A DNA stretch of 64,000 bases, from NCBI GenBank assembly GCA_963555825.3, contig CAUVXB020000002.1:1408001-1472000 (forward strand). The letters are read 5' to 3'. This stretch comes from Alphaproteobacteria bacterium. Lineage in GTDB: Bacteria > Pseudomonadota > Alphaproteobacteria > JAAXGF01. The notes below the pieces were generated by a model. That model saw nothing but the letters and a program-made list of their open reading frames with translations, ran no database searches and had not been told where the DNA came from. Shown in pieces: positions 7,162 to 41,076 of this stretch; within the stretch, counting starts at the first letter, position 1; each line of letters begins with the position of its first letter. Made by a program: the position numbers and the translations under genes.

Positions 7162-9084
<1,923 letters not shown>

Positions 9085-9181: not shown

Positions 9182-10558
9182 CTAGCCCCGCGGCGCGACG
9201 AACGCAAAGCCATGCGGACCCAATGCGTGCGCGGGCCTGAACGCGGATTCGAAAAGCGGCGCGCCGCCATCCGGCGATGCAGTACGCATGAATCCCAAAT
9301 GGGGAACCGCGAGGAGACCGTCAAGATCGTAAATCGCCGGCAAGCCCGGACGCACCGCGGCGGGAATCGCGGTCTTGCGCAACGCCGGGTGCCGCGCGAC
9401 GGCCGCGCGCCACCCGTCGTGCCCGAGCTTGCGCACCATGAACCGTCCCGGCGCCCGCCCCGGCGCCGCCGTCGCGCGCAGCGTGAACCGGCCGTCCCAG
9501 CGCACCGAACCACCGGCCTCGAGCACGGATTCTTCGGCCGCGGCGGCCGGTTCCCGGCAAATAAGAACACCGTCTCGGCGCGGCAGGATACGGCAGCCGC
9601 CGAGCGTTCGTCCCCGACGGAGAGATCCCTCCGCGAGCGCGCCATGCAGGCGCTCGAGGCGGTCGCTGCGTGGCGCGTATTCGCCGCCACCAACGCATTG
9701 CACGATACGTGCAAGGGCGCGCCGCGCAATTTCGGCCGGTGCGCCGGCATAACGAACTGGGTCGAGGCGGCAGAACCCGGCCGGGTGCGGCGCGACAGCG
9801 TCGGCCAGCAAGGCGGCGACGGCGGTGTCCACGACGCCTCGCGCACGACCCAGCGCCGCGGCCATCCGCGACAGGCGTTCGGCCGTCACCCCCTCGTCGG
9901 CAAGCACCGGCATGAGTGCGCGCAAGCGACCGCGCGCGAAAACGATATCGCGATTCGACGGGTCCTCCACCCAGGGCTGGCCAGACGCCTCGAGCGTCGC
10001 GTAGAGGCGCGCCTTGGGCGTCGCCAGCAAGGGCCGCAGGTAACGCGCATCGGGCGTCTCGACGACCGCCGCCATCGCCGCCAAGCCATCGGGGCCACTG
10101 TGCCGCTCGAGCCGCAGCAGCACGGTCTCGGCCTGGTCGTCGCGATGATGGGCCAGCAACAGATGCAGCACGCCGGCGCCGCGGCACCATTCGCCGAGCA
10201 GCCGGTAGCGCGCCGCGCGCGCGCGCGCCTGAATGTCGGTGGTCGGCTTCGGCCCAGACCAGGTCAGGACGACCGCCACGACATCGCGCGCCGCGAGCCA
10301 GGCCGCGACCCGGGCCGCCTCTTCGCGCGAGTCCGCGCGCAGCCCGTGATCGACGACCAGCGCCGTCAACCGCCCGGCGCGACACCGAACCCAGCCGTCG
10401 ACGAGCAGGGCAAGCGCCATGCTGTCGGCGCCGCCGGAGACGGCGACAGCGATTTCGGGGGGCCGCTCGAACGGGCCGAGCGGCGTCATCATGCGATCGA
10501 ATTCAACCGTGGCGATCGGCGCGGTGATCGGCAGGTCCTCGGTCCCGCCATGAGACAT
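9182..10558 (-). CDS. tilS: tRNA(Ile)-lysidine synthetase
   Basis: Motifs AVSGGADS, DHGLR, HHRDDQAET, RPLL and EDPSN; lies upstream of ftsH. Confidence 0.95.
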   Translation of the reverse strand: MSHGGTEDLPITAPIATVEFDRMMTPLGPFERPPEIAVAVSGGADSMALALLVDGWVRCRAGRLTALVVDHGLRADSREEAARVAAWLAARDVVAVVLTWSGPKPTTDIQARARAARYRLLGEWCRGAGVLHLLLAHHRDDQAETVLLRLERHSGPDGLAAMAAVVETPDARYLRPLLATPKARLYATLEASGQPWVEDPSNRDIVFARGRLRALMPVLADEGVTAERLSRMAAALGRARGVVDTAVAALLADAVAPHPAGFCRLDPVRYAGAPAEIARRALARIVQCVGGGEYAPRSDRLERLHGALAEGSLRRGRTLGGCRILPRRDGVLICREPAAAAEESVLEAGGSVRWDGRFTLRATAAPGRAPGRFMVRKLGHDGWRAAVARHPALRKTAIPAAVRPGLPAIYDLDGLLAVPHLGFMRTASPDGGAPLFESAFRPAHALGPHGFAFVAPRG

Positions 10559-10563
10559 GCTTT

Positions 10564-10835
10564 TAGCCCGGATTTCTCACCATGGACAGGCGCGTCATCG
10601 CGTCGGGCGGTCGCCGATCCGCCAGGAGAAGGCCGCAGAGCGTAGCCTGGGCTACGGTCAAGGTCTTCGACGCCGCGGGCGGCCCGCCCGGCGCGACCCG
10701 CAGGGCGGCGGATCTCAGACGACAGGCCGCGTCAAGGCGCTTGCCCGATGCGCAAGCATCGCGCCGCGCGCCTTTCCTAGCCTGTCGTGCGATATCCGCC
10801 GTGCCGCATCTGTCCATGGTGAGAAGGCCGGGCTA
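10564..10835. mobile_element. MITE-like non-autonomous structured element with TA target duplication
   Basis: Ends TAGCCCGGATTTCTCACCATGGACAG and (revcomp) TAGCCCGGCCTTCTCACCATGGACAG match at 24/26; TA on both sides; internal inverted modules; no credible ORF. Confidence 0.8.
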
Positions 10836-11900
10836 GCCGCAGCCCGAGCGTTGCGCTTCCCGCGCCACCTTCTGCTTGAGCTGCGCCGAAGCGCCGGCGT
10901 ACAGCTCGCCGAACTTCTCGAAGGCGATGCAGGCCTCTTCGGTGCGCCCCGAACCAAAGAGCGACATGCCGAGCTTGAGCATGATGTCGGGCGCCTTGTT
11001 GCCGTCGGGGAAGCGCTGCAGGCCAAGCGCGAAGTGGTGCGACGCCGAGGCGTAGTCCTTGACCACGTAATAGGTCTCGCCCAGCCAGTAGTATGCGTTG
11101 TCCGTCAACTCGTGGTCGGGATGGCTCTCGATGAAGGCGTCGAACGCGCGCCGCGCCTCGTCGAATTCGCCCTGCTGTTGCACCGCCTGTTTCAGCACGT
11201 CGTAGGCGTAGTCGTACTGCTGCTTGGGCGTACCGGCGGGCAGCGCCGGTGCCAGCGCGACCATCTCGGTCGGCTCGGCCGCGGCGACCGCACCATCCGT
11301 CGTTACCGCCAGCAGCGCCGAGGCCGGAATAGTGCCGAGCACGCCAGGCTCGTCGGAGACCTGTGGGACGAGGGCCGGCTGCGTCGTTGCCGTCGTCGCT
11401 GGAACGGTCGCCGCCGTCGCCGGGATGGCCGCCGCCGGCGCGGTGAGCGCCGCGGCCGGCGCCATGCCGGTTGCCTGCCCCCGCTCGATCGCGGTCAGCC
11501 GAAAATCGACGTCGGCGACCAGCTTGTCGATCCGTTGGCCGAGCAGATCGATGCCGTGAGCGACCTCTTCGATACGCCCGGTCAGCGTGCGCATCTCGTC
11601 CTCGACCTGGCTGAAGCGGACTTCGAGCTGCGCCGTCCGGGCATCGCCGCCGCCGACCGTTGGCGCCGTCGTCGTCGGCTGAAGCGACGGTGGCGGCACC
11701 TCGCCGCCCTTGTACACGAACCTCTGAAGGTCGCTCATGTCGTTGCGCAGGCGCTCGAGTTCGAGGAGCAACTGCTGAATATTGGAGTCTTGCGCGGCGA
11801 CCGGCGCCGGGACGCCGCCGACCATCAGCACGATCAGCGCCATGACCGCCAATGCGCGAAGAATCGGTGCGTGGTGAATCGGTGCCGAACGAACGGGCAT
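10833..11900 (-). CDS. cpoB: Tol-Pal-associated TPR protein CpoB/YbgF
   Basis: Signal peptide, coiled coil, TPR segment NAYYWLGETYY...KAPDIMLKLG; follows pal; start codon uncertain. Confidence 0.9.
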   Translation of the reverse strand: MPVRSAPIHHAPILRALAVMALIVLMVGGVPAPVAAQDSNIQQLLLELERLRNDMSDLQRFVYKGGEVPPPSLQPTTTAPTVGGGDARTAQLEVRFSQVEDEMRTLTGRIEEVAHGIDLLGQRIDKLVADVDFRLTAIERGQATGMAPAAALTAPAAAIPATAATVPATTATTQPALVPQVSDEPGVLGTIPASALLAVTTDGAVAAAEPTEMVALAPALPAGTPKQQYDYAYDVLKQAVQQQGEFDEARRAFDAFIESHPDHELTDNAYYWLGETYYVVKDYASASHHFALGLQRFPDGNKAPDIMLKLGMSLFGSGRTEEACIAFEKFGELYAGASAQLKQKVAREAQRSGCG

Positions 11901-12063
11901 ATGTCGGTTCTCCCCGCCGGTCATACCGCATCGGCGGCAGGGGGCCGGCGCTGCACTCGGCCGACGACGACCGCGCCACCCCCCGTGGCGGACGCGCCGG
12001 CCAAGCCGTTTACCCCATCTATAGTGGGCGCGCCGCCATTGCGCGCCGGGTCCGGTCGAGCCG

Positions 12064-12618
12064 TCAGGCGCCGCCGCTCGACGTGACGAGCGTGACGCCG
12101 CGCCGGTTCTGCGACCAGGCGGCCTCGCTATGGCCGACCGCATCGGGCCGTTCCTTGCCGTAGCTGATCGTCTCGATACGGTTCGGGTCGACGCCGAGCT
12201 GGACGAGGTAGTTCTTCGCCGACGTCGCGCGCCGATCGCCAAGCGCGAGGTTGTATTCGCGCGTGCCGCGTTCGTCGCAATGGCCCTCGATCATGATCGT
12301 CGCGCTGGGCCACTGGCTCAGCCACGCCGCCTGGCGCTCAAGCGTCCGTTGGGCCGAGGCGTTCAAAACCGCCTTGTCGAGATCGAAGAAGACGCGATCG
12401 CCGACGTTGACGACGAGGTCATCCTGGGTACCAGGCGTCGGCCCCATGGGCTCGGCCGGCATCGGCTCGGGCACCGCCTCCTGGGTCATCTCGCCACCAC
12501 CCGTCGAGCTTGCGGTCGTATCGCCACCGCCGCTGGTGTCACTCGATTGATCCGGCGTCGTCTCGCACGCGGCGACCAATAGCAGCGCCGCGAAAAGACC
12601 AACGAACTTATTCCACAT
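12064..12618 (-). CDS. pal: Peptidoglycan-associated lipoprotein
   Basis: Lipobox VAAC; motifs EGHCDERGTREYNLALGDRRA and SYGKERP. Confidence 0.97.
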   Translation of the reverse strand: MWNKFVGLFAALLLVAACETTPDQSSDTSGGGDTTASSTGGGEMTQEAVPEPMPAEPMGPTPGTQDDLVVNVGDRVFFDLDKAVLNASAQRTLERQAAWLSQWPSATIMIEGHCDERGTREYNLALGDRRATSAKNYLVQLGVDPNRIETISYGKERPDAVGHSEAAWSQNRRGVTLVTSSGGA

Positions 12619-22581: not shown

Positions 22582-22980
22582 GCGGCGCGATGCCGTAGGT
22601 TTGGTTTGGCTGCTGGTGTCATGGGGAGCGAGACGAATGTCGAAACGAGCGCGACATAGGGCCCGATACATCGAGGGTTGGAATTCCATGGACGCCGAAA
22701 AGCTTCTGGTATCGGTCACCGATGACTTCCTGTTCGACGATCCGGCCGACCCCGAACCCGTGACCAAGGCGACGCTCGTCGCCTATTTGCCGAAATGGCC
22801 GGCCAAGGCCGCGGCCCTGGGCGCGGCGTTCGAGTTCGATATCGTCGATAAGGTCGTGCGAGACGACGATGGTCTGTTGCTCGAGTGGTATTGGTGGCGA
22901 CTGATCGGCGCCGATGTCGAAGGTTCGGCGGTCATCAGGACGTCGGACGCGGGCGTCATCTCCGAGCGCCTGACCTATTA

Positions 22981-24155
22981 TACCAGTGAGCGCCTGAATT
23001 GACTCTCGGGATATTCATTGATGGCGGATGATGGCGGATTGTGATTCTATGGTCTCCCACCAGATGTGGGGGATGTCATGGGATCAGCACTCAAGATACG
23101 GGATGATTTGACGCCTTTGGAGCTTCGGCGCTGGGCTCGCGTGGAATCGTACGGTCGAGCGGCGGCGCGGGCCTATGGGATCGCGAATGCTTTGGAGGAG
23201 ATGCCCCGGGCTGATGCCGCGCGGCTTGCGGGGATGGATCGCCAAACGCTTCGCGACGCGGTTGTTCGTTACAATGCAAAGGGATTGGAGGGGCTTCACG
23301 ACCGTCCAAAGGGCTACTCGCCGCGGCGGCTGACGGCAGACGAGGAAGCGGCGCTGGCGGCGGTCATCATCGCCGGGCCGGAGCCTGAGCGCGACGGGGT
23401 TTGCGCCTGGACCCGGGCCGATCTGTGCCGCTGGCTGGAGGAGCGCTTCGCCAAGACCTACCACCCCTCGAGCATGACCCGGGTTCTACGGCGGATGGGA
23501 TTTTCCCGCCAGAAGGCGCGCCCGAGCCACCCGCGAAGGGACGCCGAAGCGCAGGAGCGCTTCAAAAAAGGGGGCTTCGCGACATCCTGAAGGCGACCGC
23601 CGCGGCGCATCCCGACAAGCGCCTACAGCTGTGGTTTCAGGATGAAGCGCGCGTCGGCAACAAGGGCCGGGTGTGTCACCGGTGGTGGCGCAGGGGCGAG
23701 CGTGCCCCCGGGACGCGTCAAATCGGCTACCAGTGGGCCTACATCTTCTCCGCCGTGCGCCCGGACACCGGCGACGACGTCACCCTGGTGATGCCGAGCG
23801 TCAACGCCAAGGTCATGGACCTGTTTCTCGCACACTTCGCCGATACCCTGGACCAGGATGCGCACGCCGTCATGATGTGCGACGGCGCCGGTTGGCACGA
23901 CGAGCGCGCCCTCACCGTCCCCGACAACGTCACCTTGGCGCTGTTGCCGCCTTACAGTCCCGAACTCAACCCCGTCGAGCGGGTTTGGCTCTACCTACGC
24001 GAACGCTTCCTATCGCTCCGCGTCCTCGACGACACCGAGGCCATCATCGACGCCTGTTGCCAAGCATGGATCGACCTCATCGCAGAACCGGATCGTATGC
24101 GAACCCTCTGCGCCTATCCATGGATCATGAAGGTGATTTCATAGGCTCACTTGTA
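22981..24155 (+). mobile_element. IS630-family element, copy 1 (1175 bp)
   Basis: Ends TACCAGTGAG...CTCACTTGTA; flanked by TTA/TTA; near-identical to 39664-40838. Confidence 0.95.
23078..24144 (+). CDS. IS630 transposase, two ORFs joined by a -1 frameshift
   Basis: HTH orfA; orfB with WFQDEAR, DGAGWH and LPPYSPELNPVE; slippery AAAAAAGGGGG at 23564-23574. Confidence 0.92.
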
Positions 24156-24300
24156 TTACAGGACGCCCTGGCCACTGCGCCGCTGAAGCACCCCGGGCCG
24201 GCTAAAGCGGCCAGGCCCGCGCGTCGGCTGGCTGGTCATCGTGCTGCTGCGCGGCCCGGGAAACATCGCTTACTAGGCGCTCTATAGCAGGAGGTACGGC

Positions 24301-25853: not shown

Positions 25854-26477
25854 TCAGCCGCCTCGGCCGCCGGGGCAGCGCGCCGCGATGGTCGCGGCGA
25901 TGTCGATCAGCTCGTCGAGGTCGATCAGGGTCTCGACGTAACCGTCGGTGTGGACGCGGAGCCGCGCACCGTCGAGCCGGATGTCGAGGCGCGGCAGGCG
26001 CGCGGCCAGCAGCTTGCGGCGCAGGCGAGTGTCCAACAGGCGGGCGGCGAAGTCCTCGTTGTTCCACTTCATCCGAAACGCGGTGTCGAACGCGTGATCG
26101 CCGGTCGCCGGGCGGCCGTCGGGCGGCGGCTGGCCGAGCCGCCGGGTGGCGTCGGCCGTCGCCTCGACGTCGCGCCGCGCGAGGCGGAGCTGCTGGCCGG
26201 TATCGACGCCGAGCGCCACGTCGACGAAGCAGAACGGGCCGCCGTCGGGCCCCTCGCCGCCGCTCGTCGGCATCGCGCCGACGTGGAAGCGGCGGCCGTC
26301 GATCTCGAAGTGGAGCTGCGGCAGCACCAGCGAGGTGCCCGGCGTCACGCTGCCGCGGCGCTTGGCGGCGGCCAGGCCGAACAGCCGGCCGAGGTCGCGG
26401 CTGCGCCGGGTGTGCTCGCGGTAGGCGTAGAAGAGCGCCGCGCCGATGACCGCGACGATGATGAACCACCAGTGCAT
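25854..26477 (-). CDS. Hypothetical protein with N-terminal membrane anchor
   Basis: Starts MHWWFIIVAVIGAALFYAY; co-oriented directly after DUF1192. Confidence 0.65.
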   Translation of the reverse strand: MHWWFIIVAVIGAALFYAYREHTRRSRDLGRLFGLAAAKRRGSVTPGTSLVLPQLHFEIDGRRFHVGAMPTSGGEGPDGGPFCFVDVALGVDTGQQLRLARRDVEATADATRRLGQPPPDGRPATGDHAFDTAFRMKWNNEDFAARLLDTRLRRKLLAARLPRLDIRLDGARLRVHTDGYVETLIDLDELIDIAATIAARCPGGRGG

Positions 26478-26492
26478 GGCGAGAATTCCGGG

Positions 26493-29826: not shown

Positions 29827-29841
29827 CCCGGAATTCTCATC

Positions 29842-31488
29842 ATGGCCGGGGACGACGGCACAGCCAACATCTACGAGAGCGGCCTCGACAAGAACGCGGC
29901 CAATTACGTGCCGCTGACGCCGTTGAGCTATCTGGCGCGCTCGGCCGCCGTCTACCCCGACCGGACGGCATGGATCCACGGGCCCCGCCGCGCCAGCTAC
30001 GTAGAATTTTACGCACGCTGCCGGCGCCTCGCCTCGGCGCTCACGCGGCGCGGCATCGGCGCGGGCGACACGGTCGCCGTCATGGCGCCCAACGTGCCGG
30101 CGATCCTCGAGGCGCATTACGGCGTGCCGATGACCGGCGCCATCTTGAACACGCTCAACATCCGGCTCGACGCGGCGACCATCGCGTTTATCCTCGAGCA
30201 CGGCGAGGCCAAGGCGCTGATCACCGACCGCGAGTTCTCAGCCACCATCGAAGCCGCGCTCGCCGAGACCAGCGCCACGCCGATCATCATCGACATCGAC
30301 GACGCGCTCTACCAGGGCGACGGCAAGCGGCTCGGCGAGATCGAGTACGAGGACTTCATCGCCGCCGGCGACCCGGATTACGCCTGGACCGGCCCGGCCG
30401 ACGAGTGGCAGGCCATCTCGCTCAACTACACCTCGGGCACGACGGGCAAACCCAAGGGCGTCGTCTATCACCACCGGGGCGCCTATCTGAACGCCATCGG
30501 CAATGCGCTTGGCTGGGGCATGGCGACCGGCTCGGTCTATCTCTGGACGCTGCCGATGTTCCACTGCAACGGCTGGTGCTACCCGTGGACCATGGCGGCG
30601 ATGGGCGGCACCCAGGTGTGCCTGCGCAAGGTCGAGGCGGGCGCCATCTTCGACGCCATCGCCGACCACGGGGTGAGCCATTTCTGCGGCGCGCCGATCG
30701 TCCTCAACATGCTTGTCAACGCGCCCGAGGAGGCACGCCGGCCGCTCGGCCGCACGGTCGAGGTGATGACCGCGGCGGCGCCGCCGCCGGCCTCGGTGAT
30801 CGCGGCGATGGAGGACATGGGTTTCCACGTCACCCACGCCTATGGCCTGACCGAGAGCTACGGTCCCGCCGTGGTGTGTGCCTGGCACGACGAATGGGAC
30901 GCCCTGCCGGTCGACGAGCAGGCCCGCGTCAAGGCGCGCCAGGGTGTCGCCTACCCCGTGCTCGAGGGCCTCATGATCGGCGATCCCGAAACGCTCTCGC
31001 CGTGCCCGGGCGACGGCGCGACGATGGGCGAGACGTTCATGCGCGGCAACATCGTCATGAAGGGCTACCTGAAGAACCCGCAAGCCACCGAGGCGGCCTT
31101 CGCCGGCGGCTGGTTCCATACCGGCGATCTCGGCGTCATGCACGACGACGGCTATATCGAGCTCAAGGACCGCGCCAAGGACGTCATCATCTCGGGCGGC
31201 GAGAACATCTCGACCATCGAGGTCGAGAGCGTGCTTTATCGGCATCCGGCGGTGCTCGAGGCCGCGGTGGTCGCGCGGCCCGACGAGAAATGGGGCGAGA
31301 CGCCCTGCGCCTTCGTCACGCTGAAGGACGGCGCCGAGGCGGTCGACGACCAGACGCTGATCGATTTTTGCCGCGACAACATGGCGCATTTCAAGGCGCC
31401 CAAGTCCGTCGTCTTCGGGCCGCTGCCCAAGACCTCGACCGGCAAGGTTCAGAAGTTCGTGCTGCGCGACCGCGCAAAAGAGCTATGA
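29842..31488 (+). CDS. Acyl-CoA synthetase (AMP-binding)
   Basis: Motifs YTSGTTGKPKG, YGLTE, GWFHTGD and PKTSTGK. Confidence 0.93.
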   Translation: MAGDDGTANIYESGLDKNAANYVPLTPLSYLARSAAVYPDRTAWIHGPRRASYVEFYARCRRLASALTRRGIGAGDTVAVMAPNVPAILEAHYGVPMTGAILNTLNIRLDAATIAFILEHGEAKALITDREFSATIEAALAETSATPIIIDIDDALYQGDGKRLGEIEYEDFIAAGDPDYAWTGPADEWQAISLNYTSGTTGKPKGVVYHHRGAYLNAIGNALGWGMATGSVYLWTLPMFHCNGWCYPWTMAAMGGTQVCLRKVEAGAIFDAIADHGVSHFCGAPIVLNMLVNAPEEARRPLGRTVEVMTAAAPPPASVIAAMEDMGFHVTHAYGLTESYGPAVVCAWHDEWDALPVDEQARVKARQGVAYPVLEGLMIGDPETLSPCPGDGATMGETFMRGNIVMKGYLKNPQATEAAFAGGWFHTGDLGVMHDDGYIELKDRAKDVIISGGENISTIEVESVLYRHPAVLEAAVVARPDEKWGETPCAFVTLKDGAEAVDDQTLIDFCRDNMAHFKAPKSVVFGPLPKTSTGKVQKFVLRDRAKEL

Positions 31489-38972: not shown

Positions 38973-41076
38973 GCCGGGGGGAGCGCAAGGCGATGATCAC
39001 ACGCGACGCCCCCGAGCTGAGCTTGAGCCGTCAATGCCGCCTGCTTTCGATCGGCCGGTCCTCGTTCTATTATGCGCCCAGGGGGGAGAGCCCTTCGAGT
39101 CTGGCGCTGATGCGTCGGATCGACGAGTTGTTCATGAAGTACCCGTTCTACGGCAGCCGCCAGATGGTCCGCCAGTTGCGGCGGGACGGCGTTTGCGTCG
39201 GCCGTCACCGGGTTCGCAGGTTGATGCGATTGATAGGCCTGGAGGCGATCTATCAGGCGCCGAGAACCAGCGTGCCGCATCCCATGCACCGGATTTATCC
39301 TTATCTTCTCAAAGGGATGGCTATCGACCAGCCCAATCGGGTCTGGTGCGCCGACATCACCTATATCCCCGTCCAGCGTGGCTTTCTGTACCTGGTAGCG
39401 ATCATGGACTGGGCGACGCGCCACGTTTTATCCTGGCGGCTGTCGAACACCATGGACGCTGGATTCTGCGCCGAGGCCTTGGGCGACGCGCTGGCCCGCT
39501 ACGGCCAGCCGGAGATATTCAATACGGATCAGGGCAGCCAGTTCACCAGCCTCGACTTCACCGGCGTGCTCAAGAACGCGAGCATCCGCATCTCCATGGA
39601 CGGTCGGGGCCGCTGCATGGACAACATCTTCATCGAGCGCCTGTGGCGGTCTCTCAAGTATGATACCAGTGAGCGCCTGAATTGACTCTCGGGATATTCA
39701 TTGATGGCGGATGATGGCGGATTGTGATTCTATGGTCTCCCACCAGATGTGGGGGATGTCATGGGATCAGCACTCAAGATACGGGATGATTTGACGCCTT
39801 TGGAGCTTCGGCGCTGGGCTCGCGTGGAATCGTACGGTCGAGCGGCGGCGCGGGCCTATGGGATCGCGAATGCTTTGGAGGAGATGCCCCGGGCTGATGC
39901 CGCGCGGCTTGCGGGGATGGATCGCCAAACGCTTCGCGACGCGGTTGTTCGTTACAATGCAAAGGGATTGGAGGGGCTTCACGACCGTCCAAAGGGCTAC
40001 TCGCCGCGGCGGCTGACGGCAGACGAGGAAGCGGCGCTGGCGGCGGTCATCATCGCCGGGCCGGAGCCTGAGCGCGACGGGGTTTGCGCCTGGACCCGGG
40101 CCGATCTGTGCCGCTGGCTGGAGGAGCGCTTCGCCAAGACCTACCACCCCTCGAGCATGACCCGGGTTCTACGGCGGATGGGATTTTCCCGCCAGAAGGC
40201 GCGCCCGAGCCACCCGCGAAGGGACGCCGAAGCGCAGGAGCGCTTCAAAAAAGGGGGCTTCGCGACATCCTGAAGGCGACCGCCGCGGCGCATCCCGACA
40301 AGCGCCTACAGCTGTGGTTTCAGGATGAAGCGCGCGTCGGCAACAAGGGCCGGGTGTGTCACCGGTGGTGGCGCAGGGGCGAGCGTGCCCCCGGGACGCG
40401 TCAAATCGGCTACCAGTGGGCCTACATCTTCTCCGCCGTGCGCCCGGACACCGGCGACGACGTCACCCTGGTGATGCCGAGCGTCAACGCCAAGGTCATG
40501 GACCTGTTTCTCGCACACTTCGCCGATACCCTGGACCAGGATGCGCACGCCGTCATGATGTGCGACGGCGCCGGTTGGCACGACGAGCGCGCCCTCACCG
40601 TCCCCGACAACGTCACCTTGGCGCTGTTGCCGCCTTACAGTCCCGAACTCAACCCCGTCGAGCGGGTTTGGCTCTACCTACGCGAACGCTTCCTATCGCT
40701 CCGCGTCCTCGACGACACCGAGGCCATCATCGACGCCTGTTGCCAAGCATGGATCGACCTCATCGCAGAACCGGATCGTATGCGAACCCTCTGCGCCTAT
40801 CCATGGATCATGAAGGTGATTTCATAGGCTCACTGGTATGAGGCGGTCTACCTACACGAGCTCACCGACGGCTTCCACGCCGAACGGGTCATCGGCGAGT
40901 GGATCGGCTTCTACAACACCGAGCGGCCCCATTCGTCCCTCGACGGTCAAACGCCGGCCGAGGCCTACGGGGCCGGTCAACCTGTGGATATGATGGACAA
41001 GGCTCGCGCCTTGCCCACATCCCCACAGGCTCAACAACAGCGACAGGATGTGATAAAAAGGATTTTGGCAGCATGA
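38969..41076 (+). pseudogene. IS3 transposase OrfB, interrupted by IS630
   Basis: Motifs WCADITYI, NTDQGSQF and IERLWRSLKY|EAVYL..YNTERPHSSL. Confidence 0.9.
39664..40838 (+). mobile_element. IS630-family element, copy 2 (1175 bp)
   Basis: Ends TACCAGTGAG...CTCACTGGTA; flanked by TGA/TGA; transposase 39761-40827 translates identically to copy 1. Confidence 0.95.

Follow-up and report, generated by a model that had tools for sequence, protein, structure and literature searches.

Among the closest described systems is RUP (repeat unit of pneumococcus), mobilised by IS630-Spn1, a small, non-coding, multi-copy bacterial MITE with terminal inverted repeats, which inserts at TA and is attributed to an IS630-type transposase (PMC2229807). 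In the passages of the review that bear on it, RUP is the sole bacterial MITE linked to a transposase of this type (Delihas 2008, PMC2229807). The original prediction for the locus studied here had ascribed the TA-duplicating MITEs ERIC, Correia and RUP alike to IS630-type transposases; in the same passages the ascription is made for RUP and not for ERIC and Correia (PMC2229807). RUP is described there as 107 bp long, with ends like those of a known IS (PMC2229807). The element that we report shares the general traits of RUP and differs from it in being 268 bp long and G+C-rich, with no IS found that has its ends.

Correia elements duplicate TA. In the portion of the review that describes them, the transcripts of Correia/NEMIS elements are reported to be cut by RNase III (PMC2229807). 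Like these elements, ours has inverted ends that pair in the transcript, and co-transcription with neighbouring genes, for our element a plausible one, is a further parallel. Correia elements differ, as described there, in their size of 107-155 bp, their A+T-rich composition and the IHF site of the 155-bp form (PMC2229807). ERIC, Correia and RUP are all set apart from our element by the size and composition that this text gives for them (PMC2229807).

Elements of the IS630/Tc1-mariner type duplicate TA, and in vitro insertions of ISY100 sometimes end in TA on one side and in A alone on the other (PMC2170065). The latter resembles the imperfect outer bases seen in 22 of the 51 complete copies of our MITE. 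IS630 and ISY100 are autonomous, about 1.1 kb long and carry a transposase gene, whereas our element encodes nothing. The TA within 5'-CTAG-3' is reportedly the target of IS630, to go by the title of the 1991 work of Tenzen and Ohtsubo.

A last parallel is bcr1 of the Bacillus cereus group, described in the passage cited as a repeat that is transcribed and in which compensatory changes preserve a cruciform-like fold (PMC3184786). It differs from our element in its length of about 155 bp, in the 5-bp direct repeats that flank it and in its host group, and that passage draws no relation to stop codons (PMC3184786).

Here we describe a MITE that lies between cpoB and tilS, inside the cpoB stop codon. 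We consider it likely, at roughly 80%, that it is a MITE of the TA-duplicating IS630/Tc1-mariner type that was pasted into a cpoB TAA and rebuilt the stop as TAG, and that the enrichment of its family at stop codons comes from target choice together with selection.

Structure of the element at the cpoB-tilS junction

The window, meaning the whole 64,000-nucleotide stretch analysed, corresponds to positions 1408001-1472000 of contig C2 in a genome (G000) of 6.04 Mb, two contigs and 65% G+C. On its plus strand, positions 10564-10835 read tttTA-GCCCGGATTTCTCACCATGGACAG...CTGTCCATGGTGAGAAGGCCGGGC-TAgccg: a TA, 268 bp with inverted ends, and a second TA. The size first given for the element, 268 bp excluding both TAs, is correct. 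The MITE proper (10566..10833) is non-coding, starts with G and ends with C, and is enclosed by the left (10564..10565) and right (10834..10835) copies of the TA target-site duplication. Over their full length, these 272 bp are found again with 82-94% identity at dozens of unrelated loci in the genome, which places the element far beyond chance.

A repeat search of the window recovers two arms, 10564-10602 and 10797-10835, each 39 nt long and 82% complementary. The left (10566..10597) and right (10802..10833) terminal inverted repeats form the 5' and 3' arms of an outer stem, helix 1, at alignment columns 2-34 and 245-277. Between them, the predicted Y-shaped fold has two long internal hairpins. 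The first (10598..10696) is a prediction for which the copies offer almost no variation to test the pairing; the second (10706..10801) appears in both the repeat search and the predicted fold, and includes element position 193. Two 84-aa ORFs inside the MITE have no Pfam match, and its internal ORFs are not conserved in frame, with 1-3-nt indels between copies.

The neighbouring genes are all on the minus strand. The cpoB/ybgF-like gene (10833..12242) encodes a TPR protein, with TPR repeats and a TolA_bind_tri match of 24.9 bits that is under the Pfam cut-off. Its frame ends TGC GGC TAG, and this stop (10833..10835) consists of the duplicated TA, at 10835-10834, and the terminal G of the MITE; the C-terminus is unaltered by the insertion. 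The PP-loop ATPase gene tilS (9182..10558; PP-loop E 5e-45) follows with its ATG at 10558, and ftsH (7162..9084) is the next gene downstream. Removal of the element and one TA gives the rebuilt empty site ...tgcggcTAAaagcATG, exactly the sequence originally proposed, and the position of the MITE inside the cpoB stop, with a rebuilt TAG, is confirmed. The distance from the cpoB stop to the tilS start is now 277 nt, against 4 nt in the rebuilt empty site. Pattern scans of 10300-11100 returned no sigma-70-like promoter and no intrinsic terminator.

Within the same interval, 10300-11100, the covariance models of Rfam 15 gave no match up to E = 1; an exact match would have taken away the novelty that had been claimed. 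A keyword search of the literature retrieved no description of the family, nor of stop-codon enrichment of IS630-type MITEs. With the named MITEs compared by description only, this is a real and apparently undescribed MITE family of RUP type, with a TA target and IS630-like.

A family of 51 complete copies

A BLAST search with the 272 bp finds 56 places in the genome. We count 51 complete copies: 34 short ones of about 272 bp, 16 long ones of about 539 bp (two of them 581 bp) that contain a nested second MITE, and one split by a 1.47-kb IS. Another six copies are truncated. The element is thus multi-copy with a TA duplication, as foreseen, and not a single-copy curiosity. A scan for the end motif gives 148 hits, with 54 inward-facing pairs and about 40 solo ends, and the terminal inverted repeats are conserved across 29 aligned copies.

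The short copies have a mean pairwise identity of 0.898, and the resident IS elements are 99-100% identical among their copies. Judged by this divergence of about 10%, the MITE family is old relative to the resident IS elements. The 266 extra base pairs of the long form are a second, unrelated MITE with its own inverted ends of about 30 nt, nested at position 193. Since the composite is present 16 times, the outer MITE was still mobile after the nesting. Furthermore, the IS in the split copy is nearly identical to its other copies, so the MITE predates the expansion of this IS.

An example of the composite is G000:C1:39567-40104; the insert is 96-99% identical among this and the 15 other long copies. 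The second MITE stands alone at two places, G000:C2:934429-934696 and C2:1833068-1833336, and around 15 further places match it at about 75% identity. The split copy, G000:C1:2279585-2281322, is interrupted by the 1.47-kb IS with ends CAGCCCGTTGA..., which apparently duplicates TTAA and has at least seven copies at 98-100% identity. A 58-bp 'mini' form at G000:C2:1987422-1987479 consists of two ends back to back and could derive from deletion between the palindromic CCATGG common to both ends.

Two solo remnants of MITE ends lie elsewhere in the window, at 29828-29849 on the plus strand and 26470-26491 on the minus strand; in each, three of the 20 specified bases of the 22-nt motif are mismatched. 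The plus-strand remnant takes up all 15 nt that separate the TGA of a TrcR-family gene from the ATG of an AMP-binding (acyl-CoA synthetase-type) gene, whose ATG is that of the end motif itself. The minus-strand remnant likewise sits behind a TAA. Among 47 solo or truncated ends genome-wide, a gene-like ORF opens at the motif ATG in 6, the end lies directly behind a gene-like stop in 14, and both hold in 3. Such ends have the look of scars left by secondary deletions, which made the junctions compact again.

Insertion at TA within YTAR

In 48 copies, the left TA is preceded by C (32 copies), T (15) or G (1), and the right TA is followed by G (32), A (10), T (4) or C (2). Targets rebuilt for the 51 copies read CTAG (24), TTAG (13), TTAA (5), CTAA (3) and others (6). 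The target is YTAR, mostly CTAG, with duplication of TA, and the family shows the IS630-like preference for TA within CTAG. Of the 51 complete copies, 29 have TA at both junctions and most of the remainder have it at one. In the 22 copies lacking a clean TA on one side, it is nearly always the outer base that is changed, so that the left side reads CA or the right side TG.

Flanks of the form YTAG...CTAR, found in most copies, would also suit an IS5-type MITE with a 4-bp YTAR duplication, in which the G and C ends are part of the duplication. MITEPsy1 is of this kind, and is reported to duplicate CTAG or YTAA (PMC3189936). However, of the 9 copies with a left flank base other than C, only 1 has the agreeing base on the right, and of the 6 with a right flank base other than G, 1 has the agreeing base on the left; of these 15 informative cases, the 4-bp model thus fits 2. 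In the window copy, TTAG on the left stands against CTAG on the right. From this disagreement we take the duplication to be TA and the element to run from G to C, with a 2-bp rather than a 3- or 4-bp duplication. Identical 4-bp repeats are not what the two sides carry, and we reject the IS5-type duplication as extremely improbable.

Empty junctions in relatives and copies in other genomes

The genome is the sole species of its genus in the collection, and its family holds 12 other genomes, mostly fragmented. In all 12 of these family-level relatives cpoB and tilS are adjacent and too close for a 270-bp insert to fit: 1-60 nt separate the stop of cpoB from the first TilS residue that aligns (residues 10-20), and the junctions read for example TGAgtg, TGAggtg or TAAagtg. 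The same Gly-Cys-X residues precede the stop in the cpoB genes of the relatives. The tight, unoccupied junction expected in relatives is therefore found 12 times out of 12, as empty-like sites. Ten of the 12 end cpoB with TGA, that is, with no TA on offer. One relative (G004) has 32 matches to the MITE, yet its cpoB-tilS junction is empty.

An empty allele of the same species was not seen in the DNA contigs of runs X1 and X14, which carry the two occupied junctions with zero differences, nor was a joint of precise excision seen in these two runs. The excision joints listed for X1 and X14 are not credible, with sides of merely 20-22 nt. Occupied cpoB-MITE-tilS junctions without differences occur in DNA contigs of runs from two studies. 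The best-covering runs, X1, X9, X12 and X18, include ones labelled 'sponge metagenome'.

Outside this genome, the end motif occurs in three MAGs, which account for 17 of 20 MAG stretches, and in 109 metagenome stretches; the remaining three MAG stretches are isolated hits in unrelated MAGs. We collected 100 such loci (L061-L160) from the 20 MAG stretches and 80 of the 109 metagenome stretches, and MITE sequence continues beyond the end motif in 90 of them. A tree places the MAG copies in a clade of their own and joins many of the metagenome copies to individual copies of our genome. Identity to the window copy is 84-91% for the copies from other genomes, in contrast to 66-73% for the cpoB DNA of family-level relatives. 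This points to an element that decays more slowly than genes, or to transfer between lineages.

Search for a mobilising partner

The genome contains at least 150 DDE_3 matches, and we defined five IS630-type families in it, of 1185, 1177, 1174, 1171 and 1054 bp. The ends of the MITE match no IS of the window, as the original prediction had stated, and none of the five IS630-type families genome-wide. Pairs of the terminal repeat spaced 0.6-3 kb apart are absent from the genome, with the exception of the IS-split copy. A tblastn search with the five resident transposases gave 0 hits in the 100 MAG and metagenome loci, and Pfam analysis of ORFs adjacent to solo ends found housekeeping genes only, with no transposase beside them. 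In a DDE_3 search of five other genomes, the sole complete IS630-type element, located in a MITE-bearing MAG, has unrelated ends. A distant search of a plasmid collection gave a best E of 0.02 and no end match.

Longer, transposase-bearing copies with the same terminal repeats, which had been suggested as a possible source, were thus found neither in the genome nor in the 100 loci, and the plasmid collection holds no autonomous relative with these ends. Resemblance to the ends of an IS630-family element is likewise absent from the five families and the one MAG element. The best end resemblance, an internal match of 13/14 nt to one end of the 1177-bp IS (E = 0.037), was rejected as too weak and one-sided.

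The IS630 family itself has undergone a massive expansion in this genome, with 66 full copies of the 1185-bp IS and 65 of the 1177-bp IS. Two copies of the latter lie in the window, at 22980-24156 and 39663-40839; its flanks suggest a 3-bp T-N-A duplication in 7 of the 10 copies viewed.

Enrichment at stop codons

Both ends of the MITE begin with G when read inward, and therefore insertion into TAA or TAG always rebuilds TAG, in either orientation. In 24 of the 51 copies a gene-like ORF does end at the junction TAG, and two of these copies serve two convergent genes at once. A first count, with a GC filter on the whole ORF, gave 25/51 and overlooked real genes such as those for the AHAS small subunit and ThiS. 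We then used a uniform rule that looks at the final 100 codons and asks for an open frame, a GC3 of at least 0.75 and a GC1 higher than GC2; it recognises 5566 gene-like stops genome-wide and was applied equally to copies and controls. By this rule 28/51 copies of the MITE are at a gene-like stop.

Among the 30 fetched loci, Pfam domains are present in 13 of the 19 frames of at least 450 nt that end at a junction. Domains that run to the C-terminus include SucD-type CoA ligase, AHAS small subunit, ThiS, RecQ, CcmH and OppC-type permease. They confirm that the frames ending at junctions are real genes.

Gene-like stops coincide with 10.9% of all YTAR sites and 14.0% of those outside coding interiors, and with 19.1% of all CTAG sites and 23.7% of those outside coding interiors; these baselines are approximate, as they depend on a home-made, GC3-based gene map (74% coding) that under-calls genes. 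As a consequence the intergenic baseline is too large and the true enrichment somewhat smaller. Against the 23.7% baseline the share of the MITE has a binomial p of 1.6e-6. A weight matrix built from 26 non-stop sites predicts 15% over all sites and 25% outside coding interiors, so the target alone is insufficient to explain the stop-codon share.

As an internal control we used the 1185-bp IS of the IS630 family, which also has G...C ends and is flanked by CTAG...CTAG in 65 of 66 copies. It lies at a gene-like stop in 22/66 copies, and the share of the MITE is above it (Fisher p = 0.024). The enrichment at stop codons suspected from the single locus is hence supported, with 28/51 copies against 14-24% of available sites. 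Stop-codon landing as a trait of this family holds in part: the family is enriched, but the resident CTAG-targeting IS reaches 22/66 as well, and landing in stops is for this reason largely a matter of TA/CTAG target and selection, with no special skill. The assertion that the element 'lands harmlessly in stop codons' is similarly borne out for the landing, whereas the harmlessness is an inference.

Our reading is that target choice gives about one quarter to one third, as in the young IS, and that long purifying selection, acting on an old family, adds the rest. The gene-pair contexts of the copies, 10 convergent against 3 divergent, agree with this reading. Alternatively, the transposase might actively target gene ends through a structural or protein cue at stops or terminators, rather than the bare TA/CTAG, which could explain why the MITE exceeds both the available sites and the 15-25% of the sequence model. 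Several facts speak against such targeting: at about 10% divergence the family is old, and neutral sites would become enriched through survivorship alone; the control IS, although much younger, already reaches 33%; the intergenic baselines are inflated by under-called genes; and divergent-promoter contexts are rare (3) and convergent ones common (10), which is what selection by itself would produce. We regard it as quite improbable.

At the MAG and metagenome loci, 9 of the 24 copies with usable flanks are at a stop, with several of these representing one site in different records.

Tight junctions, pairing of the ends and transcription

The next start lies 10 nt or less from the rebuilt stop in 13 of the 25 stop-codon copies of the first count, as in TAGccgATG, TAGgccATG and TAAggccATG. 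The cpoB-tilS case is thus typical of the family.

The RNAalifold structure of 29 copies has the shape of a Y, with an outer stem made of both ends and two long inner hairpins, and 98.2% of alignment cells are paired on it. Both-sided changes occur in 10 of the 97 predicted pairs, against 4.0 +/- 1.3 in shuffled alignments (0 of 500 reach the observed value) and 1-3 pairs in slid controls. Eight of the 10 covarying pairs are in the end-to-end stem, and the inner helices contribute 2 of 68, one of which is G-C in 13 copies and A-U in 12. Covariation of the ends is not predicted from transposase binding alone. Minor wobble states (39 cells, 22 types) are not clearly above A-C mismatches (29 cells, 23 types), so that no strand is favoured; the constraint on pairing might operate in DNA or in RNA of both senses, or the pattern might stem from arm-to-arm exchange.

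At columns 9-10 and 269-270 of alignment A1 (window 10572-10573 and 10826-10827) a single position close to each terminus is hypervariable, and the two are mostly complementary to each other. This pair of positions takes six standard pair types among the 29 copies, with 15 copies changed on both sides.

For the RNA of mRNA sense from 10540 to 10860, the predicted fold has -191.9 kcal/mol (z = -7.6). At the foot of the predicted stem lie the stop of cpoB and the nucleotides immediately preceding the tilS AUG. Co-transcription of the element ahead of tilS-ftsH, put forward originally, is neither demonstrated nor contradicted by the RNA libraries: among the short contigs of X15 and X16, none bridges the element. 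One RNA contig, 10821-11137, enters it by 15 nt, and the others lie in tilS or cpoB alone. These contigs carry no strand, ends or levels.

Together, these data bear on the idea that the folded RNA, or single-stranded DNA, is itself under selection and acts as a processing or insulating module at operon junctions, for example as an RNase III site by which expression of cpoB would be kept apart from that of tilS-ftsH. It would account for the persistence of many copies between a stop and the next start. The covariation, concentrated in the end-to-end stem, the strong predicted fold, the tight junctions, the stop share above that of an IS with the same target and the higher conservation of the element than of cpoB in other genomes all fit this idea, and the cited passages offer precedents in the RNase III processing of Correia/NEMIS transcripts (PMC2229807) and the compensatory changes of bcr1 (PMC3184786). 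In the tight-junction set, moreover, 11 of 13 copies have a single orientation (binomial p = 0.022), in a subset chosen after looking. This bias (11 vs 2) is not upheld over all tandem contexts (10 vs 10) and does not recur in other genomes. The pairing shows no strand asymmetry and may be an effect at the DNA level or of arm exchange, few inner-helix pairs covary, and the RNA-library contigs gave no bridging. On balance we find a selected module of this sort rather unlikely.

A still broader proposal is that the family is shaped for stops and operon joints: with G...C termini and a TA duplication that restore TAG on both sides, it could settle in the few nucleotides that separate translationally coupled genes. 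The Y fold, maintained by compensatory changes in the end-to-end stem, would then serve in the polycistronic RNA to process it or to uncouple genes, here cpoB from the essential tilS-ftsH, and the scars of MITE ends would supply leaders and perhaps starts of downstream genes, as at 29828-29849; we would give this proposal only a small chance.

Discussion

Inverted repeats, target duplication, copy number, size and empty sites together classify the element as a MITE. In the explanation that we prefer, insertion of an IS630/Tc1-mariner-type MITE into the cpoB TAA, a transposase supplied in trans, and possibly since lost, would have cut the MITE out of another place. The MITE would then have been pasted into the TAA with which the cpoB-like gene originally ended, at its TA, and this TA duplicated. 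As both ends begin with G inward, the junction reads TA plus G and the CpoB protein is unchanged in either orientation. In a genome of 65% G+C, TAA and TAG stops probably make up a large share of the TA/CTAG sites that can be disrupted without cost, and selection would later have removed insertions elsewhere.

On the RNA level, 268 nt added to a cpoB-tilS-ftsH mRNA would, by the folding model, form a very stable Y, in which the outer stem of about 30 bp may bring the surroundings of the cpoB stop together with the stretch directly ahead of the tilS AUG. The former stop/start coupling would thereby be broken, and a long double-stranded target for RNA processing might be presented.

Several points count against the main explanation. 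No transposase-bearing element has these ends in the sequences searched, the ends are unlike those of the resident IS630-type families, 22 of the 51 copies do not have a clean TA on one side, and the stop share of the MITE is larger than that of the control IS.

The finding adds a MITE family to a poorly sampled lineage, in a genome packed with IS630-type elements. It shows, with counts and an internal control, that an element targeting TA/CTAG in a G+C-rich genome can complete the stop codon in more than half of its copies, and that a MITE can wedge itself into tight operon junctions and leave the proteins unaltered. For annotation, one element explains about 50 gaps of 270-540 bp between genes of this genome, together with many of its stop codons. 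If the RNA-level reading were true, the family would be a natural system in which an inserted hairpin rewires expression in essential operons.
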